Below, piece by piece: positions 2,583-49,220 of a DNA stretch of 64,000 nt (its first letter is position 1; each line of letters opens with the position of its first letter). Source of the DNA: Candidatus Iainarchaeum sp. (lineage in GTDB: Archaea; Iainarchaeota; Iainarchaeia; Iainarchaeales; JAZDEL01); the NCBI GenBank assembly GCA_043808785.1, contig JAZDEL010000006.1, positions 41,264 through 105,263 of the forward strand, written 5' to 3'. Under the pieces are notes generated by a model. The model had not been told where the DNA came from. It ran no database searches and saw nothing but the letters and a program-made list of their open reading frames with translations. A program made the translations under genes and the position numbers.

Positions 2583-3713
2583 TTATTCCATGCGCAGCGC
2601 GTCCACAGGGTCCATTTTCGAGGCTGCATATGCGGGGTAAATTCCCGCAAAAATCCCCATGAAAAGGGCGAAGAGGAATGCCTCCGCTATGAGCACCGTC
2701 CCCACGACAGTTGTAAGGCCTGATAAGGAAGTGATTGCATTTGCAATGGCAATGCCTAAAATTATGCCCGCAATGCCGCCGAAAATTCCGAGGAGCGCTG
2801 ATTCGTAAAGGATCATTTTCATTACGTCATTGTTTGTCCACCCGACCGCCTTAAGCGCGCCTATTTCATTGAAGCGTTCCACAACACTCATCAGCATGGT
2901 GTTCAGTATGCCCACCCCCGCAACTATTGCCGCTATTGCGGCTACTGCGCCGACAAGCAGGCGCAGGCTGCCAAGCACGTCCCCTATCTGGCTCGAGAAA
3001 TCGCTCGCAGACCTTGCCTTGAGGTCGTCCCCGTACCTGAAATTTATTATTTCCGCTATCTTCTGGTCGTCCTCGGGGTTAGTGAGGCTGAGGCTGTACT
3101 GCGTGACCTTCCCCTGCGGCGCGTCAACAAGGTCCCTGAGGTCTGCGATAGGCATTATTATTGCCATATTGAGGATCGCCGAGCCTGTTTCGTAAACTCC
3201 CGCAATTTTGAAGCTCTTGCCGTTTATCTTTACATTGTTCCCGACAAATTTGTCGTTATCGTCGATAAATTGTTTTGAAACCATGATAACGCCCTTGTCC
3301 CCCGATTTGAGTTTCCTGCCGCTTACAAGCTCGCCTGAAAAGCCTGCTGCGCCCTCCATGCCGCCCTTGTCAAGGCCTATGCCTATGAGTTGTGCAGAGC
3401 CCCCTAAGATAGATGACGCGCCCTCTATGGACTTTGCAACAGAAACGAGTGTGGGGGTTACTTTCTCGACCCCGGTTATGGATTCGAGCTTTGCCTCATA
3501 TGAAGTGTCTATCTGGGAGAAGAGGCCTATCTGCCCCTTTTGGTAAACCACGACGCCCTGCATGTTGGAGAATGCGCCCTCAACCTCGGCAAGCATGCCG
3601 TCAACAACGGAAACCATGGCTATGATTGCGGCGACGCCTATGATTATGCCGAGCAGGGAAAGCACGGCCCTGCTGCGGTTCCTGAAAAGGTTTGAAACCG
3701 CGACCTTCAGCAT
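2583..3713 (-). CDS. ABC transporter permease, FtsX/MacB-like
   Basis: N-terminal TM helix, large periplasmic loop and C-terminal FtsX-like TM bundle. Paralog of 4417..5553. Confidence 0.8.
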   Translation of the reverse strand: MLKVAVSNLFRNRSRAVLSLLGIIIGVAAIIAMVSVVDGMLAEVEGAFSNMQGVVVYQKGQIGLFSQIDTSYEAKLESITGVEKVTPTLVSVAKSIEGASSILGGSAQLIGIGLDKGGMEGAAGFSGELVSGRKLKSGDKGVIMVSKQFIDDNDKFVGNNVKINGKSFKIAGVYETGSAILNMAIIMPIADLRDLVDAPQGKVTQYSLSLTNPEDDQKIAEIINFRYGDDLKARSASDFSSQIGDVLGSLRLLVGAVAAIAAIVAGVGILNTMLMSVVERFNEIGALKAVGWTNNDVMKMILYESALLGIFGGIAGIILGIAIANAITSLSGLTTVVGTVLIAEAFLFALFMGIFAGIYPAYAASKMDPVDALRME

Positions 3714-3725
3714 AAAACCCCCTGC

Positions 3726-4415
3726 TCAGGCCCTTGCGCGGCCGGGTTTTGTGCCCTCTATTTTCCCGTCGCGCATGTGGTACTGCACGCTGGCGAAGCG
3801 CAGGAGGCTTTCGTCGTGCGTGACTATGACGAATGTTTTTTTCTCGTCCTTGTTGAGGCGCCTCATTTCGCTGACTATTTTTCCGCCCGTAATTGAATCG
3901 AGATTGCCCGTGGGCTCGTCCGCAAAGATTATTTCCGGGTCGTTTATCAGCGCGCGTGCGATTGAAACGCGCTGCCGTTCCCCGCCAGACATTTCCGAGG
4001 GCTTGTGGAACATCCTGTCCTGCAGGCCCATCTGCCTGAGGAGCGATTTTGCCCGCCCCATGACCTTTTCCTGCGGCAGGTTCATCGGCTCGGTGGGAAT
4101 CATCACGTTTTCAAGCGCATTCAGGGTAGGAATAAGGTTGAATGCCTGGAATATGAAGCCTATTTTTTCGCGCCTTATCATTGCGAGGTGCCAGTCATCG
4201 AGCGCGGTTATGTTCTTGCCCCCTATATGCACGGTTCCTGATGTCGGATGGTCGAGCGCACCGAGGATGTGCATAAGCGTGCTCTTTCCCGAGCCGCTGG
4301 GCCCGACAATGATTACAAAATCGCCCTTCTTTACGTTGAGGGAGACGCCCCTTAGTGCGTGCACCGTGCTCCCGCCCATTTTGTATTCTTTGGTTATGCC
4401 GTTTGCCTCGATCAT
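3726..4415 (-). CDS. ABC transporter ATP-binding protein
   Basis: Walker A GPSGSGKST, ABC signature LSGGERQRVSIARAL, Walker B IIFADEPTGNLD. Start moved to the internal Met (ATG at 4415), which abuts the upstream permease stop. Confidence 0.85.
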   Translation of the reverse strand: MIEANGITKEYKMGGSTVHALRGVSLNVKKGDFVIIVGPSGSGKSTLMHILGALDHPTSGTVHIGGKNITALDDWHLAMIRREKIGFIFQAFNLIPTLNALENVMIPTEPMNLPQEKVMGRAKSLLRQMGLQDRMFHKPSEMSGGERQRVSIARALINDPEIIFADEPTGNLDSITGGKIVSEMRRLNKDEKKTFVIVTHDESLLRFASVQYHMRDGKIEGTKPGRARA

Positions 4416-14042: not shown

Positions 14043-14184
14043 TGGGAAGAGCGGGATTTGAACCCGCGACACCACGGTTTCTGCTCCTTTCGCAAAACCT
14101 GGAATCTTCAGCTGCACATGGGCAGAGCGTGGAAAACTCCCCTCAACGCCCATCGTGTGCTCTCCCAGGCTGAGCTACCTTCCC
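14043..14184 (-). tRNA. tRNA-Phe(GAA)-like gene, 142 nt, probably with two introns
   Basis: 5' half GGGAAGGTAGCTCAGCCTGGGAGAGCACACG and 3' half CCGTGGTGTCGCGGGTTCAAATCCCGCTCTTCCCA are 68 nt apart. Removing a 41-nt segment after position 30 and a 27-nt segment after position 38 leaves G+CTGAAGA as the anticodon loop and a 74-nt cloverleaf. The anticodon assignment is an inference. Confidence 0.6.
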
Positions 14185-14207: not shown

Positions 14208-14218
14208 TGTTTAAAAAG
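14208..14218 (-). promoter_or_regulatory. TATA-like box (TTTTTAAA on minus strand) about 26-33 nt upstream of the tRNA 5' end
   Basis: A/T hexamer in GC-rich surroundings at the expected archaeal spacing. Confidence 0.4.
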
Positions 14219-14222
14219 GATT

Positions 14223-14858
14223 CTATTCCGTCGCAGCCATGGCCCGCGCTAGTTTATAGGGGTTTGAAAAGCCGATTTCGGAAATCCATTTTCGCAGGTT
14301 TGCCTTCCCGTTTAGTGGAACCTTATATGCGGTTCGGACTGATGTTTTTGATTTGTAAGCCCAAATTTTTGCAACATTGAATCCGGCAACGCTTAATAGT
14401 TCCTTCAACTGTTCCGCAAGAGCGCGGCTCGTAGTGGTTATCTCAATAGAAGGGTATTTCGGCGAGCCCGGTTTGTCGGCCACGAAAACGGAGCCGTCCG
14501 TGTCCACGATGCCCCGGATTGCGTGCTTTGCCGACTCCCAATCGGCTTCGATTTCGGCGGGAATTTTGGCCTTAGCGCACTTGCCTTCATGGAAAGGCAA
14601 CCTGAATGTAGTCGTCAGGCGTTCCACGATCGGCTTAGAGTCAAATTTAATTCTGACCGCACGTTCCCTGAATTTAGGCTTAACCACCCGCCCCCATGCG
14701 GAATAAATTAGGCGGCTCAGATTTTCAAAATACTGCGCATCGGTTATTGGATTTCCCGTAAAGCCGATTATGTATTTCCTGTTGCGTTTGTAAATGTGCC
14801 CGTCCCCGAGGTAGGCGCCGATTAGTTCGCATTCTTCGGGAGAAATAGTTTCAGCCAT
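14223..14858 (-). CDS. LAGLIDADG homing endonuclease, double-motif, free-standing
   Basis: Two LAGLIDADG motifs, LIGAYLGDGHI and IRGIVDTDGSV. 211 aa, between two intron-containing tRNA genes. Confidence 0.8.
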   Translation of the reverse strand: MAETISPEECELIGAYLGDGHIYKRNRKYIIGFTGNPITDAQYFENLSRLIYSAWGRVVKPKFRERAVRIKFDSKPIVERLTTTFRLPFHEGKCAKAKIPAEIEADWESAKHAIRGIVDTDGSVFVADKPGSPKYPSIEITTTSRALAEQLKELLSVAGFNVAKIWAYKSKTSVRTAYKVPLNGKANLRKWISEIGFSNPYKLARAMAATE

Positions 14859-14960
14859 ATTATATAAAAGGGTTTGCGCAATTTAAAGGCTCGCAGAGAG
14901 TGCATTTCCGCTGCGGTTTTTGCCTTAAGCGGTTTCCGGTGCGAAGTGTGCCGGCCCAGT

Positions 14961-15072
14961 AATTTTAAAACGAGCCCGAGGGGATTTGAACCCCCGACAC
15001 CTTGGTTAAAAGCCAAGTGCTTTTGGCGGAAGGGGGCATGGAAACCCGCCCGACTTCCTCTACCAGACTGAG
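14961..15072 (-). tRNA. tRNA-Lys(UUU), 112 nt, with a 38-nt intron in the D-stem (non-canonical position)
   Basis: GGGCCCGTAGCTCAGTCTGGTAGAG | 38 nt | CACTTGG-CTTTTAA-CCAAG-GTGTC-GGGGGTTCAAATCCCCT-CGGGCTC-G. Excising GAAGTC...CAAAAG restores the GAGC D-stem and a 74-nt cloverleaf. Confidence 0.8.
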
Positions 15073-15097
15073 CTACGGGCCCGTCACAAAGAACGGG

Positions 15098-15107: not shown

Positions 15108-15387
15108 AATTTAAATGTGTGCGGGCGGGAAAAACAAACAAAAAAAACGCGTCCGTGGTTTGGCGGGTTTGGTTGGTTTTGCCGGGTTTGCCGGGTCGTG
15201 GCGGGAAACAAACCAAAAACCGCGCAGGAGCGCGGTTGGTTTTGTTGGGCTTGCGGGGTTTGCTGTGCCGGCAAACCAGCAGGCAAACCATCGGGCATGC
15301 GTGCCCGCGGGGATTTTTCGAGTTCATTTCCGCAATGCGAAAGAAACATTTATATAATGCGTTATATATCAACTATATGTTGATTAT

Positions 15388-16868: not shown

Positions 16869-17004
16869 CGAGCCCGAGGGGATTTGAACCCCCGACACCC
16901 TGGTTGCCCCAGAATGGAAATTAAGAGCCTCACCCACGCACAAGGAAACCGCAAGCGGAAACTTGAAACATGACAGGTGCTCTACCAGACTGAGCTACGG
17001 GCCC
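16869..17004 (-). tRNA. tRNA-Lys(CUU)-like gene, 136 nt, probably with two introns
   Basis: Acceptor, D and T arms are identical to tRNA-Lys(UUU). Removing 45 nt after position 30 and 17 nt after position 38 leaves G+CTCTTAA as the loop between CCTGG/CCAGG stems, giving 74 nt. The anticodon assignment is an inference. Confidence 0.55.
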
Positions 17005-20315: not shown

Positions 20316-20402
20316 AGCGGGGTAGGGCAGCCTGGAGTGCCCGTCGGGCTCATATTCCATGGGGAAACCCGAAGGTCGAAGGTTCAAATCCTTCCCCCGC
20401 TA
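20316..20402 (+). tRNA. initiator tRNA-Met(CAU) with a canonical 12-nt intron (37/38)
   Basis: AGCGGGG...CCCCGCT-A with an A1:U72 pair, GGG/CCC at the base of the anticodon stem, CTCATA|TTCCATGGGGAA|A loop, and T-arm GAAGGTTCAAATCCTTC. Confidence 0.85.
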
Positions 20403-35883: not shown

Positions 35884-36507
35884 ATGATATCTGACGAATA
35901 CATAATGGGCTTTGTCGAGGGCGAGGGCTGCTTCAGCATAACGCTGCAGCGTTACTTTGACCGCAAGCCCAGGGCAACTGGCCGCAGGAACAACCGCAAG
36001 CACAAGGCGTTTCCGATACGGTTGGCTCCAAGCTTCAGGATTACGATAAGGGAGAAAGACAGGCGCGTGCTTGATGAGATTAAGGAAAAGTTCGGTTTTG
36101 GCTCCATTTATTTGCAAAGGAGACAGGGGGAAAATTGCCAGGATACTTGCCAATATGTTGTAGAAACCTTTGGGGATTTGTTTGTTCTGGTGGATTTCTT
36201 CTCAATGCAGACTTTTTACACTCAGAAAGGTGAGGATTTCAGAAAATGGGCCCAGGCTCTCGAGATTTTCAAATCCGGCGGGCATTTAACAAAGGAGGGC
36301 GCGCTGGAGATTTGTAGGCTCAGGGACTGCATGAACCTACGGATGAACAAAGGCAACCGTGTTTCCGAAGAGGTTAAGGCTCTCCTCGAGGAGAAACGCG
36401 AGCACATTCTGGCGCATGCAGACAAAAATCAGAGTAAACTTCTACATAATTGTGATGGGGCACTGCCCAAATCGCCGTTCCCTTTGACGCAGCAACCCAC
36501 ACCCTAA
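35884..36507 (+). CDS. LAGLIDADG-family homing endonuclease, free-standing
   Basis: YIMGFVEGEGCFSI motif (LAGLIDADG_3-like). Locally AT-richer than the surroundings. Confidence 0.65.
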   Translation: MISDEYIMGFVEGEGCFSITLQRYFDRKPRATGRRNNRKHKAFPIRLAPSFRITIREKDRRVLDEIKEKFGFGSIYLQRRQGENCQDTCQYVVETFGDLFVLVDFFSMQTFYTQKGEDFRKWAQALEIFKSGGHLTKEGALEICRLRDCMNLRMNKGNRVSEEVKALLEEKREHILAHADKNQSKLLHNCDGALPKSPFPLTQQPTP

Positions 36508-46355: not shown

Positions 46356-46778
46356 TTACTTCACGACCCTGAACTTGTAGCCGTAGGCAATCGCCCCTTC
46401 TTTCCTCTGCTCGGAAATCTTCCTGAAAACCTTCTCCACATGTGCGCCTATCCTTACCTTTTCATTTTCGCTGTCCACGACCTGGCTTAACAGCCTCGCG
46501 CCGTTCTCAAGTTCTATTATCGCAAGGAAATAAGGCGTTTCGTGGTCGAACCCCGTGGGTCCTGTCATTACCTCCGTGTATGAAATAACCTTCCCCTTCC
46601 TCGGCATCTGCTTTGCTGAAAGCTTCCCGCGCCTCCTGCAGTTCGGGCAAACTCCCCTTGCCGGGAAGAAATCCTCGCCGCATGTGCTGCACGAATTGCC
46701 GGCAAGCGTGTAGCGCTCGGGGAACTTCCTCCAGATTAACGGCAGTGCTTCGCTCATTTCATGCACCCCCCGCAACAC
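46356..46778 (-). CDS. DUF35 OB-fold/zinc-ribbon protein (scaffold of the archaeal thiolase-HMGCS complex)
   Basis: CSTCG...CPNC zinc ribbon plus OB fold. Confidence 0.75.
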   Translation of the reverse strand: MLRGVHEMSEALPLIWRKFPERYTLAGNSCSTCGEDFFPARGVCPNCRRRGKLSAKQMPRKGKVISYTEVMTGPTGFDHETPYFLAIIELENGARLLSQVVDSENEKVRIGAHVEKVFRKISEQRKEGAIAYGYKFRVVK

Positions 46779-48045
46779 AATATGCGAATTTATTTCCCGT
46801 TAATTTCCTCTCGACAAGCCCCTCTTCAGACATCCGCAATAGAACATCGCGCACATGCCTTCCCGACCTTTTGCACGCCTTTGAAATGCCCGAAGCGGTT
46901 GCGAGAACGCCCTGCGCATTAAGATTTGTGATTGCTTTAATATAGTTCTCCGAAGCCTCGTGGCGCGGGAAAGACTCGAGCCCGTCAACATACCTGCCAA
47001 GAACATGCACGAGTTTGTTTTCCTTCCGTTCCAGGCCGAAACCGACCTTCTCGAGATATTTCCGCAGGTTCTCCCTACCGCTTATTATAAGTGTCCAATT
47101 GAGCGTAACTTCCCCGCTGCTTTTGAAATTGCGCCCCCTGACGACTATTTTTGATTTAATGCCCATGACTTCCAATGACTGCTGAACATCCGACAGCAAC
47201 TGCGGCTTTTTTGCGGCAGTTTCTTCCGCAGCGGTTGTGGGGCATATCAGAGTAATCACCCTGCAGTGATAATTATCCACAACACAGCCGTCATCGTCAA
47301 ACAGCCGTCTCAGGAGGGCTATAAGCGGCTTTCTATCGCCCGCCGCAATGAACTGCCTGGGAATTCCTAATTCGTAATTATAATTTTTGTTGCCGTCAGG
47401 AATCCCGATAGTGCCGAGGATTACGCCGATTATTTTGGGGAAAATTACGCAGGGCACGCCGCTTGTCGACCTGTGGCGTGCAAACCTGACATCGCCAAAT
47501 GTGGAAACAACCGCACCCACAAAACTATCGACCTGCTGGCGCTCGTTGTTGAAGTACCAGACGCGCATCTTGCTTTTTTCTATCCCGCCGTCGCCCAAAA
47601 CTCCGCCAACAACAAGCCCGAATTCCTCGGTCAAAATTTCGAAAGGCAGCTTCGGGTTTTTTATTTTCTCTTTTGATTTCAGGGTTTTCAATTCAATTAC
47701 TTTCTTTTCTATCTTCCGCCCGTTAATGCCAAGTTCATCCGCAGCCCTGGCCAAAAACGAAAGCGGCATGCCGCTCCTTCCGACGGAATACCGCCTTGCG
47801 GATTCGCCCCTGCCGAGCCCGAAAGCCCTTGCGATTGCGGAAAACGAGCCGTGTTTCTTCAAGAGCGCCCCGAATAGTTCCTTCCTGAACTCGGCATCCA
47901 GCGTAACGCGAATTTTGCCCGCAGGCAAATCAAAAAGGGAAATGCTCGCCATTTCATCTTCACCAGCAATAAATATGTTTTTTATCCCCTTAAATAGTTT
48001 CGGGAGAGTGCATTTCCGGTGCGAAACAGAAATTTCCGTATTCAT
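46759..48045 (-). CDS. LAGLIDADG-family protein (double-motif) with N-terminal HTH-like and C-terminal winged-helix-like extensions
   Basis: LVVGGVLGDGGI and LIALLRRLFDDDGCV motifs. Its ATG overlaps the thiolase TGA (ATGA at 48045-48042), and its stop overlaps the DUF35 start by 20 nt. Confidence 0.7.
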   Translation of the reverse strand: MNTEISVSHRKCTLPKLFKGIKNIFIAGEDEMASISLFDLPAGKIRVTLDAEFRKELFGALLKKHGSFSAIARAFGLGRGESARRYSVGRSGMPLSFLARAADELGINGRKIEKKVIELKTLKSKEKIKNPKLPFEILTEEFGLVVGGVLGDGGIEKSKMRVWYFNNERQQVDSFVGAVVSTFGDVRFARHRSTSGVPCVIFPKIIGVILGTIGIPDGNKNYNYELGIPRQFIAAGDRKPLIALLRRLFDDDGCVVDNYHCRVITLICPTTAAEETAAKKPQLLSDVQQSLEVMGIKSKIVVRGRNFKSSGEVTLNWTLIISGRENLRKYLEKVGFGLERKENKLVHVLGRYVDGLESFPRHEASENYIKAITNLNAQGVLATASGISKACKRSGRHVRDVLLRMSEEGLVERKLTGNKFAYCVAGGA

Positions 48046-49220
48046 CTTTTCCCCTCCAGTGCCTGCAAAATGTGAATCACGCATGTTGCCCCACTCCCCC
48101 CGATATTGTGCGTCAGCCCTATGTGCGCATTCTTAACCTGCCTCTTCCCCGTAACCCCCCTTACTTGCTCGCAAATCTCGATAGCCTGCTTAACGCCTGT
48201 TGCGCCGACAGGGTGCCCGCATTTAAGCCCGCCCGAGGTGTTAATCGGGATTTCACCTTTTAGTGCGGTTTTTCCGTCCTCGCTTGCTTTTCCCCCTTTG
48301 CCCTTTTTGAAGAACCCCAAATCCTCTATTGCAAGTATTTCCGCGATTGTAAAGCAGTCATGCACTTCCGCCAAATCAATATCCGAAATCTTAAGTCCCG
48401 ACTGCCTGAGCGCCTCCTGCACCGCAACCTTCGTCGCCCACAGTTCGGTAAGGCTCTTCCTGCTAGCAACGGCAAGAGTATCCGAAGCCTGCGCGCTCGC
48501 AATAATCTCGACAGGTTCCTCACACAGTTTTCTTGCCTTATCCGTCGCACACAGGATTGCCGCTGCTGCACCGTCGCTGATGGGCGAGCAATCCAGCAGT
48601 TTCAGGGGAGTTGCAACATACCCTGAATTCATCACATCCTCAATTGTAATTTCATTGTGGAATTGTGAGTGGGGGCTGTGCATGCCGTTCGCATGGTTCT
48701 TCACTGCAACAGCGGCCATCTGTTCCTCCGTTGTTTTGAACTCGTGCATATGCCTCCTTGCAAGCAGCGCATAGAGTGCGGGGAAAGTTGCGCCCTGGAA
48801 AAGCTCGGTTTCCTGGTCCCCCGCGCCCCCCAAAGCAAAGCCCGCTTCCTCGGTGCTTACCTCAGTCATCTTCTCCGCCCCGCCGACAGCAACAACATCA
48901 TACATTCCGGAAGCGATCGCGTGGTAAGCCGCCCTAAGGGCAACCCCGCCAGAAGCGCATGCAGCCTCAACACGCGTGCTCGGCGCGGGATTCAGCCCTA
49001 ACTGATCCGCAATAAGCGCCCCAATATGCTCCTGCCCTATGAACCTTCCAGAAGCCATGCATCCGCCGTAAACCGCCTCTATATCCGCCCCGCTTATGCA
49101 CGCGTCGCTTATCGCCATTATTCCCGCCTCGGCAATAAGCTCGCGGAACGACTTGCCCCAGTGCTCCCCGAATTTCGTTATGCCCGCGCCGATAACCGAA
49201 ACGCTCCTCATGCCGCGCAC
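48042..49220 (-). CDS. acetyl-CoA C-acetyltransferase (archaeal acetoacetyl-CoA thiolase)
   Basis: Thiolase Cys region CASGG, C-terminal NIGGSGATCV. Confidence 0.9.
   Translation of the reverse strand: MRGMRSVSVIGAGITKFGEHWGKSFRELIAEAGIMAISDACISGADIEAVYGGCMASGRFIGQEHIGALIADQLGLNPAPSTRVEAACASGGVALRAAYHAIASGMYDVVAVGGAEKMTEVSTEEAGFALGGAGDQETELFQGATFPALYALLARRHMHEFKTTEEQMAAVAVKNHANGMHSPHSQFHNEITIEDVMNSGYVATPLKLLDCSPISDGAAAAILCATDKARKLCEEPVEIIASAQASDTLAVASRKSLTELWATKVAVQEALRQSGLKISDIDLAEVHDCFTIAEILAIEDLGFFKKGKGGKASEDGKTALKGEIPINTSGGLKCGHPVGATGVKQAIEICEQVRGVTGKRQVKNAHIGLTHNIGGSGATCVIHILQALEGKR

Follow-up and report, generated by a model that had tools for sequence, protein, structure and literature searches.

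A LAGLIDADG gene beside tRNA-Phe in an Iainarchaeota genome is probably a free-standing homing endonuclease gene aimed at that tRNA gene

This study concerns a 64,000-nucleotide (nt) stretch of contig JAZDEL010000006.1 from the archaeon Candidatus Iainarchaeum sp. (assembly GCA_043808785.1), hereafter the window, and in particular an open reading frame (ORF) on its minus strand (14223..14858) that encodes a LAGLIDADG protein and ends just before a tRNA-Phe(GAA) gene. We consider it probable, though well short of certain, that this ORF is a free-standing homing endonuclease gene aimed at the tRNA-Phe gene, that introns shield the linked tRNA-Phe copy, and that the gene spreads by co-conversion. 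Comparison of related loci suggests that it belongs to a lineage spread over the DPANN archaea which specialises on the tRNA-Phe(GAA) gene and is the likely driver of a mobile element.

Results

The free-standing ORF opens with ATG and encodes a single chain of 211 amino acids (aa), which the first-pass annotation of the window, made from the letters of the sequence, had read as a double-motif LAGLIDADG endonuclease; profile search, structure prediction and fold comparison agree with that identification. Indeed, the chain contains the motifs LIGAYLGDGHI and IRGIVDTDGSV, each ending in an acidic residue (D19 and D121) that would form the catalytic Asp pair, and Pfam LAGLIDADG_3 (PF14528) matches it with an E-value of 3e-12 (47.1 bits, for a cut-off of 22.5). 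Both aspartates are unchanged in 22 of 22 aligned homologs, and column identity averages 61%. The AlphaFold2 model, computed from a 22-sequence alignment, has a predicted local distance difference test score (pLDDT) of 94.6 and a predicted template modelling score (pTM) of 0.91. Its two halves each follow the alpha-beta-beta-alpha-beta-beta-alpha order of elements of pseudo-dimeric LAGLIDADG enzymes. A Foldseek comparison with the PDB gave 103 matches at E<=1e-3, almost all of them to LAGLIDADG enzymes, the highest-ranking of which are LAGLIDADG endonucleases or engineered variants: the archaeal intein endonuclease domains TliVMA and PI-PfuI, I-Tsp061I (TM-score 0.72/0.74) and I-DmoI (TM-score 0.64) lead, and the maturase bI3 and WhiA rank lower. 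The solved enzymes share only 13-23% sequence identity with the protein, and searching the PDB by sequence returned no meaningful match. Additional domains were found neither by the Pfam scan nor in the model.

The two closest relatives keep the gene order of the window (tRNA-Lys, endonuclease gene, tRNA-Phe). Comparison with them gives ratios of nonsynonymous to synonymous substitution rates (dN/dS) of 0.15 (locus L086) and 0.125, within an overall range of 0.11-0.15, and the synonymous divergence (dS) behind these estimates exceeds 1.8. Moreover, an identical protein occurs in a deposited Candidatus Diapherotrites (Iainarchaeota) metagenome-assembled genome (MAG). The ORF is an intact and real double-motif LAGLIDADG protein gene under purifying selection, and its product is predicted to cleave DNA.

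A search covering 5.8 billion proteins returned 221 homologs, the best 120 of which are nearly all 206-213 aa long and 50-88% identical; some of the homologs are labelled 'WhiA' by some database sources. Eighty loci from GTDB contigs, one genome per species, were scanned for tRNA genes with R1, a custom covariance model built from 29 intronless tRNAs. Rfam and R1 replaced ARAGORN, which fails on the multi-intron tRNAs of the window and the loci. Nearly all locus labels are DPANN (Iainarchaeota, Nano-, Woese- and Pacearchaeota, Aenigmatarchaeota, Micrarchaeota and Undinarchaeota), the others being differently or generically labelled. Viral contigs searched for the family gave only two weak partial matches, and on this result the family does not count as viral.

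In a midpoint-rooted neighbour-joining tree, 60 of the 62 Phe-clade proteins, taken from GTDB species genomes, have a tRNA-Phe(GAA) gene at most about 250 nt away (5-250 nt), the neighbouring tRNA being typed by its D-loop GGGAGAGC, the sequence CTGAAG and a discriminator A. The two exceptions are L031, at a contig end, and L059, a decayed copy with tRNA-Phe fragments. The arrangement is tandem at 33 loci, with the endonuclease gene preceding the tRNA, as in the window and all Iainarchaeota, convergent at 22, divergent at three (two decayed divergent copies lie outside the tree) and nested at two. A gene placed at random in a genome of about 1 Mb would fall 250 nt or less from its one tRNA-Phe gene with a probability below 1e-3, and since the adjacency recurs in about 60 independent species-level genomes, it is not due to chance. 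Furthermore, steady proximity combined with varying orientation fits an endonuclease gene kept within the co-conversion tract of its cleavage site, and not an operon. The first-pass annotation had named tRNA loci in general as possible targets; this is supported for tRNA-Phe, by locus comparison the only relevant partner, and not for tRNA-Lys, a mere neighbour within a conserved tRNA cluster.

Some relatives extend this picture. A sister clade (30-37% identity) directly abuts tRNA-Thr in DPANN genomes, at times overlapping the tRNA end (L066, L068, L071, L073, L075, L077, L079-L082 and L084), which suggests a second tRNA-specific endonuclease lineage. MAGs labelled Hadarchaeaceae and Bathyarchaeota (L213, L214) contain family members with an adjoining tRNA-Phe; the family may reach past DPANN, unless these contigs were assigned to the wrong bins. 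At L034, the convergent tRNA-Phe gene (about 3640-3790, minus strand) has, as parsed by eye, an apparent three to four introns (at acceptor stem 4/5, in the D-loop, and from about position 26 to the anticodon stem). If correctly parsed, it is an instance of extreme tRNA gene fragmentation beside an endonuclease gene.

In the window, 38 nt separate the endonuclease stop codon from the downstream tRNA-Phe(GAA) gene (14043..14184, minus strand). This gene was recognised by Rfam (41.6 bits) and by R1 (57.5 bits), and was resolved by exon/intron parsing into 142 nt with two introns and a mature tRNA of 74 nt. On the same strand, exon 1 (14154..14184) covers tRNA positions 1-30 and is followed by the 41-nt, ORF-less intron 1 (14113..14153) at position 30/31. 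Exon 2 (14106..14112) consists of G31 and CUGAAG with the anticodon GAA; the 27-nt intron 2 (14079..14105) lies at the canonical position 37/38, and exon 3 (14043..14078) runs from position 38 to the discriminator A73. Folding and manual assignment give intron 1 a canonical bulge-helix-bulge motif of the hBHBh' form, with two 3-nt bulges on opposite strands, a 4-bp helix between them and symmetric splice sites (helix A24G25/C74U75; bulge C71A72|G73; 4-bp helix C26-A29/U67-G70; bulge C30G31|A32; helix U33-G38/U61-A66). Intron 2 folds into a relaxed bulge-helix-bulge motif. Judging from these predicted splice-competent structures, both introns should be removable by the splicing endonuclease that archaea normally use.

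In three cases (L037, L042 and L211) the ORF lies inside the tRNA-Phe gene itself, within a bulge-helix-bulge intron of 640-650 nt at position 30/31. L037 (Nanoarchaeota B33_G15; tRNA-Phe at 1024-1749) has a 652-nt intron with a 218-aa ORF that starts at nucleotide 1 of the intron and is closed by a TGA made up of U33-G34-A35 of the anticodon loop in the 3' exon (cUGAag). L042 (Aenigmatarchaeota AUK206; 2974-3685) has a 638-nt intron whose ORF is open in frame across the 5' exon and has its stop codon in the variable loop. In the third case, present in two JGI samples (L211/L212), the ORF is wholly intronic. In all three the junctions are canonical hBHBh', the closing helix has 12 bp, and the spliced exons give a clean cloverleaf of 74 nt. 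Since the ORFs of L037 and L042 run into tRNA exons, their proteins must be translated from unspliced pre-tRNA. The tree places these two, which come from different phyla, as sisters at a non-basal position. A group I intron was also considered for the nested cases and is ruled out by the canonical bulge-helix-bulge junctions and by the ORF, which occupies almost the whole intron and so leaves no room for a group I ribozyme.

Intron 1 of the window opens with AUGGG and has a terminal helix, as does the L037 intron. By its shared position and geometry it is the ORF-less counterpart of the endonuclease-bearing introns of L037, L042 and L211. The window represents a state of free-standing endonuclease plus ORF-less intron, and these relatives a fused state, with the ORF in the 30/31 intron.

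An endonuclease-independent sample was assembled by scanning metagenome contigs for a tRNA-Phe-like 5' half, typing the tRNAs and searching the contigs with the family profile. About 11 tRNA-Phe(GAA) loci of this tRNA-ascertained sample have the endonuclease gene, which is decayed in four of them, by in-frame stops (L093, L096), a frameshift (L101) or truncation and divergence (L097). Among endonuclease-ascertained loci, five more copies have stops (L030, L033, L040, L049 and L059). Empty-site homologs of the tRNA island, which had been proposed as something to look for, were found at L104, L119, L125, L156 and L166. Their clusters read tRNA-Met (minus strand) ... tRNA-Lys(UUU), tRNA-Lys(CUU), 18-79 nt, tRNA-Phe, with neither endonuclease gene nor introns, and are the empty version of the site in L001, L035, L096 and the window. 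The tRNA-Lys(CUU) genes of empty L119 and endonuclease-positive L035 differ by one base. Comparing filled with empty sites, the insertion amounts to about 0.8 kb, made of one ORF and spacers, without integrase.

The intronless tRNA-Phe of L103 matches the spliced exons of L211 at 74 of 74 positions, so a perfect intron-minus allele occurs in nature; the spliced window tRNA-Phe differs from L204 by 7 nt and from L119 by 6 nt. At L020 (about 3812-3845) the full gene is followed by an extra 29 nt from the 3' part of another tRNA-Phe allele, and at L214 (about 1385-1402) an 18-nt piece of the tRNA-Phe 5' part is found upstream of the endonuclease gene; these two fragments resemble scars of recombination. 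The L020 endonuclease, from a Micrarchaeota MAG, falls within the Iainarchaeota clade, and it and the nested pair cross phylum lines in the tree. Presence or absence at a fixed site, decay and apparent lateral transfer together make up the population signature of a mobile element. Target-site duplications, whose presence had been suggested as a further sign of mobility, and tRNA-Phe fragments were sought around the window gene and none were found, the sole repeats there being the generic similarity of tRNA-Lys and tRNA-Phe arms.

Introns and endonuclease genes tend to occur together. Among tRNA-ascertained loci with adequate flanks, those with the endonuclease gene comprise 8 intron-bearing tRNA-Phe genes and 2 intronless ones (both with decayed endonuclease copies), against 5 intron-bearing (L106, L121, L135, L144 and L189) and 20 intronless ones where the gene is absent (Fisher p=0.0017, on counts that are not phylogenetically independent). 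Introns were counted in 36 of 41 tRNA-Phe genes (median length 134 nt) and in 39 of 67 other tRNAs of the endonuclease-ascertained loci.

Four tRNA genes are located within 14-21 kb of the window by Rfam and R1; ARAGORN detects one of the four and misses the other three because of their introns. Upstream of the endonuclease gene lies tRNA-Lys(UUU) (14971..15082, minus strand; R1 71 bits), with an intron of about 38 nt in its D arm, and the endonuclease ATG is 112 nt downstream of it. The gene is nested between intron-containing tRNAs, as the first-pass annotation had noticed. The cluster continues with tRNA-Lys(CUU) (16869..17004, minus strand), which has a 45-nt intron at 30/31 and a 17-nt one near 37/38, and with tRNA-Met (20316..20402), found by the tRNA scan on the strand opposite to the tRNA-Phe and tRNA-Lys genes. 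By comparison with the empty loci, the endonuclease gene is an insertion between tRNA-Lys(UUU) and tRNA-Phe of a conserved tRNA-Met/Lys/Lys/Phe cluster.

A TATA-like box (CCTTTAAAT; 14880..14888, minus strand), kept in L086 and L088, lies 22-30 nt upstream of the endonuclease ATG, and the gene is probably transcribed from a promoter of its own into an mRNA with a short leader or none. Within the 38-nt spacer, another TATA-like box (TTTTTAAA; 14210..14217, minus strand) precedes the 5' end of tRNA-Phe by 26-33 nt, and AT-rich boxes occur at the matching position in L001, L003 and L004; tRNA-Phe would likewise have its own promoter. Since such a box precedes each of them, the two genes are probably separate transcription units. 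The spacer from tRNA-Lys(UUU) to the endonuclease ATG (14859..14970, minus strand) aligns with that of L086 at about 93% identity, which exceeds the conservation of the coding sequence, and L088 lacks 28 nt of it; this spacer may be regulatory, perhaps containing a hairpin or a small RNA. G/T-rich direct repeats (GGTTGGTTTTGCCGGGTTTGCCGGGT and variants) are present at 15124-15290, immediately upstream of tRNA-Lys(UUU).

The window has two other LAGLIDADG ORFs, at 35884 and 46759, both recognised as such at first pass and both matched by Pfam; they belong to other subfamilies than the gene studied here. The 207-aa ORF at 35884-36507 (plus strand; LAGLIDADG_1, E=4e-16) is free-standing, and no rRNA or tRNA was detected near it. 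The 441-aa ORF at 46759-48084 (minus strand; LAGLIDADG_3, E=2e-10) is wedged between two genes and overlaps both, one of them DUF35-like (46356-46778) and the other resembling an acetoacetyl-CoA thiolase gene (48042-49220). Its placement suggests a free-standing endonuclease gene that entered a conserved operon, and the R1 scan found no tRNA adjoining it.

Discussion

The linkage to tRNA-Phe in four arrangements, the empty sites, the decayed copies and the scars lend support to what had been a mere suggestion of the first-pass annotation, namely a mobile element targeting tRNA loci. In the mechanism that we propose, the enzyme would recognise the uninterrupted tRNA-Phe gene at the 30/31 anticodon-stem junction (about ...GAGAGCRNNCG^GCTGAAGACCG...), and alleles without the element would be cut. 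A break repaired from the endonuclease-bearing chromosome would carry over, by co-conversion, both the nearby endonuclease gene and the tRNA-Phe allele linked to it. The resident tRNA-Phe would be immune, with its bulge-helix-bulge introns (30/31 and 37/38) interrupting the site, and the splicing endonuclease would clear both introns from the pre-tRNA. We infer DNA cleavage, the exact target, intron immunity and ongoing mobility from comparison of sequences.

Several observations weigh against this proposal. The endonuclease clades mostly track host taxonomy, with one arrangement per clade; this indicates long vertical inheritance which, together with the low dN/dS, would also be expected of a domesticated gene. 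The presumed target is deduced solely from the intron position in the nested L037, L042 and L211. Five intact endonuclease genes adjoin an intronless tRNA-Phe (L016, L023, L024, L035 and L038). The anticodon stem is changed in four of these five, which could make these alleles resistant, and L024 keeps the common CATGG/CCATG stem. The association between endonuclease and introns may be a lineage effect, and among the metagenomic endonuclease-negative loci the taxonomy is established only for those that share the tRNA cluster. Finally, tRNA-Lys(CUU) of the window copies the intron layout of tRNA-Phe without an adjoining endonuclease gene, so 30/31 introns are not exclusive to the endonuclease-linked tRNA. 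Because of this layout and of the phylogenetic non-independence of the counts, we treat introns as immunity as a hypothesis and not as a result.

The main rival explanation is that of a domesticated LAGLIDADG protein, kept by selection for a host function tied to tRNA-Phe, either as a DNA-binding regulator or as a pre-tRNA processing factor. It would account for the dN/dS of 0.11-0.15, for a length so tightly held with 50-88% identity across phyla, and for clades that follow taxonomy with a steady arrangement within each, and it has precedents in WhiA and the maturases, which share the fold and occur among the fold matches. WhiA, however, is without the catalytic acidic residues and has a C-terminal helix-turn-helix domain, and maturases serve group I introns. 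Here, in contrast, both catalytic aspartates are invariant and no domain has been added to the 211-aa chain, and for these reasons the protein does not fit the class of WhiA-like domesticated regulators. Close relatives with empty sites (L119 vs L035) and at least eight decayed copies are hardly what a host function predicts, four gene arrangements speak against a constraint of co-expression, and the nested copies resemble classical mobile introns. A role in splicing is further contradicted by intact copies beside intronless tRNA-Phe and by intron-bearing tRNA-Phe without the protein. These same loci, with the bulge-helix-bulge nature of the introns, indirectly rule out a maturase or splicing helper. 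Co-transcription with tRNA-Phe as the reason for the linkage is likewise ruled out, by the TATA box of the tRNA in the spacer and by the common convergent and divergent arrangements. On balance we regard domestication as unlikely. Strong conservation of the protein is to be expected where its target hardly varies (compare PMC2602781).

Other explanations would give the gene a more passive part. The first-pass annotation had offered, as a second possibility, the remnant of an excised intron ORF. It was right about a tie to introns, as the ORF of L037, L042 and L211 sits at the position of the window's intron 1. What seems to us improbable, even more so than domestication, is an inert relic, that is, an ORF once housed in the tRNA-Phe 30/31 intron which was moved or copied outside and mobilises nothing, its linkage being historical. 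Nested relatives do exist, intron 1 of the window retains the AUGGG start and terminal helix of L037, and inheritance is vertical within Iainarchaeota. Yet a non-functional gene would not be expected to show intact catalytic residues and a dN/dS of 0.15 at a dS above 1.8, the nested forms do not branch at the base of the tree, and the independent insertions (tandem, convergent and divergent) imply that successful moves happened repeatedly. The endonuclease-like gene could also be incidental cargo of a larger integrative element or virus with its attachment site in tRNA-Phe, since tRNA genes are classic integration sites (PMC4090602, PMC4033280) and the partial tRNA-Phe duplications of L020 and L214 resemble attachment-site scars. 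We find this very hard to credit: the insertion is only about 0.8 kb, with one ORF, spacers and no integrase, the window shows no direct repeats or tRNA fragments, viral contigs are nearly empty of the family, and the neighbouring genes vary among lineages.

The homing endonuclease reading can be compared with several known systems. I-DmoI, I-Tsp061I and I-PorI, of rRNA bulge-helix-bulge introns, are like the window protein archaeal, with a single-chain two-motif fold and about 200 aa, and the relatives in L037, L042 and L211 likewise occupy bulge-helix-bulge introns, which the tRNA splicing endonuclease excises. The host gene is rRNA there and tRNA-Phe (30/31) here, and in the window and most relatives the gene is outside the intron. 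The I-DmoI type is characterised by an ORF lodged inside such an intron in the gene for a stable RNA, and this is found only in L037, L042 and L211 and not in the window.

Phages have free-standing endonucleases beside their targets, such as SegB in the T4 tRNA region, and show collaborative or trans homing (PMC2988022, PMC2790892). As with T4 SegB and mobE/I-TevIII, the window has an intergenic endonuclease gene by a conserved target, and an ORF-less intron interrupts the presumed target. The model of collaborative homing predicts that free-standing and intron-inserted states coexist, and both are found here in related genomes. The phage systems differ in that they involve GIY-YIG or HNH enzymes and self-splicing group I introns in phages, whereas the present family combines putative LAGLIDADG enzymes with protein-spliced bulge-helix-bulge introns in archaeal chromosomes. 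By analogy, the best-supported view would make it an archaeal, LAGLIDADG, bulge-helix-bulge counterpart of SegB and mobE/I-TevIII homing. Group I introns of bacterial tRNA genes also bear endonucleases, of the PD-(D/E)XK type in cyanobacterial tRNA-fMet and of the LAGLIDADG type in tRNA-Arg(CCU) (PMC13011429, PMC3984707). They have in common with the present family a homing endonuclease tied to the tRNA anticodon region, but are ribozymes of at least 500 bp in the anticodon loop, unlike the 652-nt bulge-helix-bulge intron filled by a 218-aa ORF seen here.

The class of enzyme is therefore known. What appears to be new is that the host gene is a tRNA, that the intron is protein-spliced, that a cellular lineage has both free-standing and nested states, and that the family ranges so widely over DPANN. 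Archaeal tRNA introns are given as "less than 100 nt" and ORF-less (PMC4033280), homing is absent from the tRNA-intron reviews consulted, and full-text searches of open-access papers gave no description of endonuclease-bearing archaeal tRNA introns or of the linkage to tRNA-Phe.

Conclusion

Standard tRNA finders miss intron-rich genes (one of four found in the window), so that tRNA-Phe will often be scored as absent in DPANN genomes; standard annotation would call tRNA-Phe and both tRNA-Lys genes missing in the window genome. If the endonuclease family is indeed tied to tRNA-Phe, at times within a 650-nt bulge-helix-bulge intron and mostly next to an ORF-less copy of that intron, it would be a plausible agent of mobility, at the DNA level, for the tRNA introns of archaea, and would offer a cellular, non-phage case of the transition from free-standing to intron-encoded endonuclease proposed for mobile introns. 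It would also provide a natural set of related monomeric meganucleases for one highly conserved 20-30 bp sequence.

A broader reading is possible, although we hold it only tentatively and would not lean towards it at present. Living intermediates in this family may still display how mobile protein-spliced introns are born and go through their life cycle in Archaea: a free-standing endonuclease gene beside an ORF-less intron, and a composite, endonuclease-bearing intron of 650 nt with an ORF that can extend into the exons, so that the pre-tRNA doubles as mRNA, with pressure from the endonuclease helping to drive the gain and retention of tRNA introns in DPANN. Introns reportedly protect tRNA genes, an idea attributed to Randau and Soll. 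If the broader reading were true, this protection idea would gain a concrete, testable agent.

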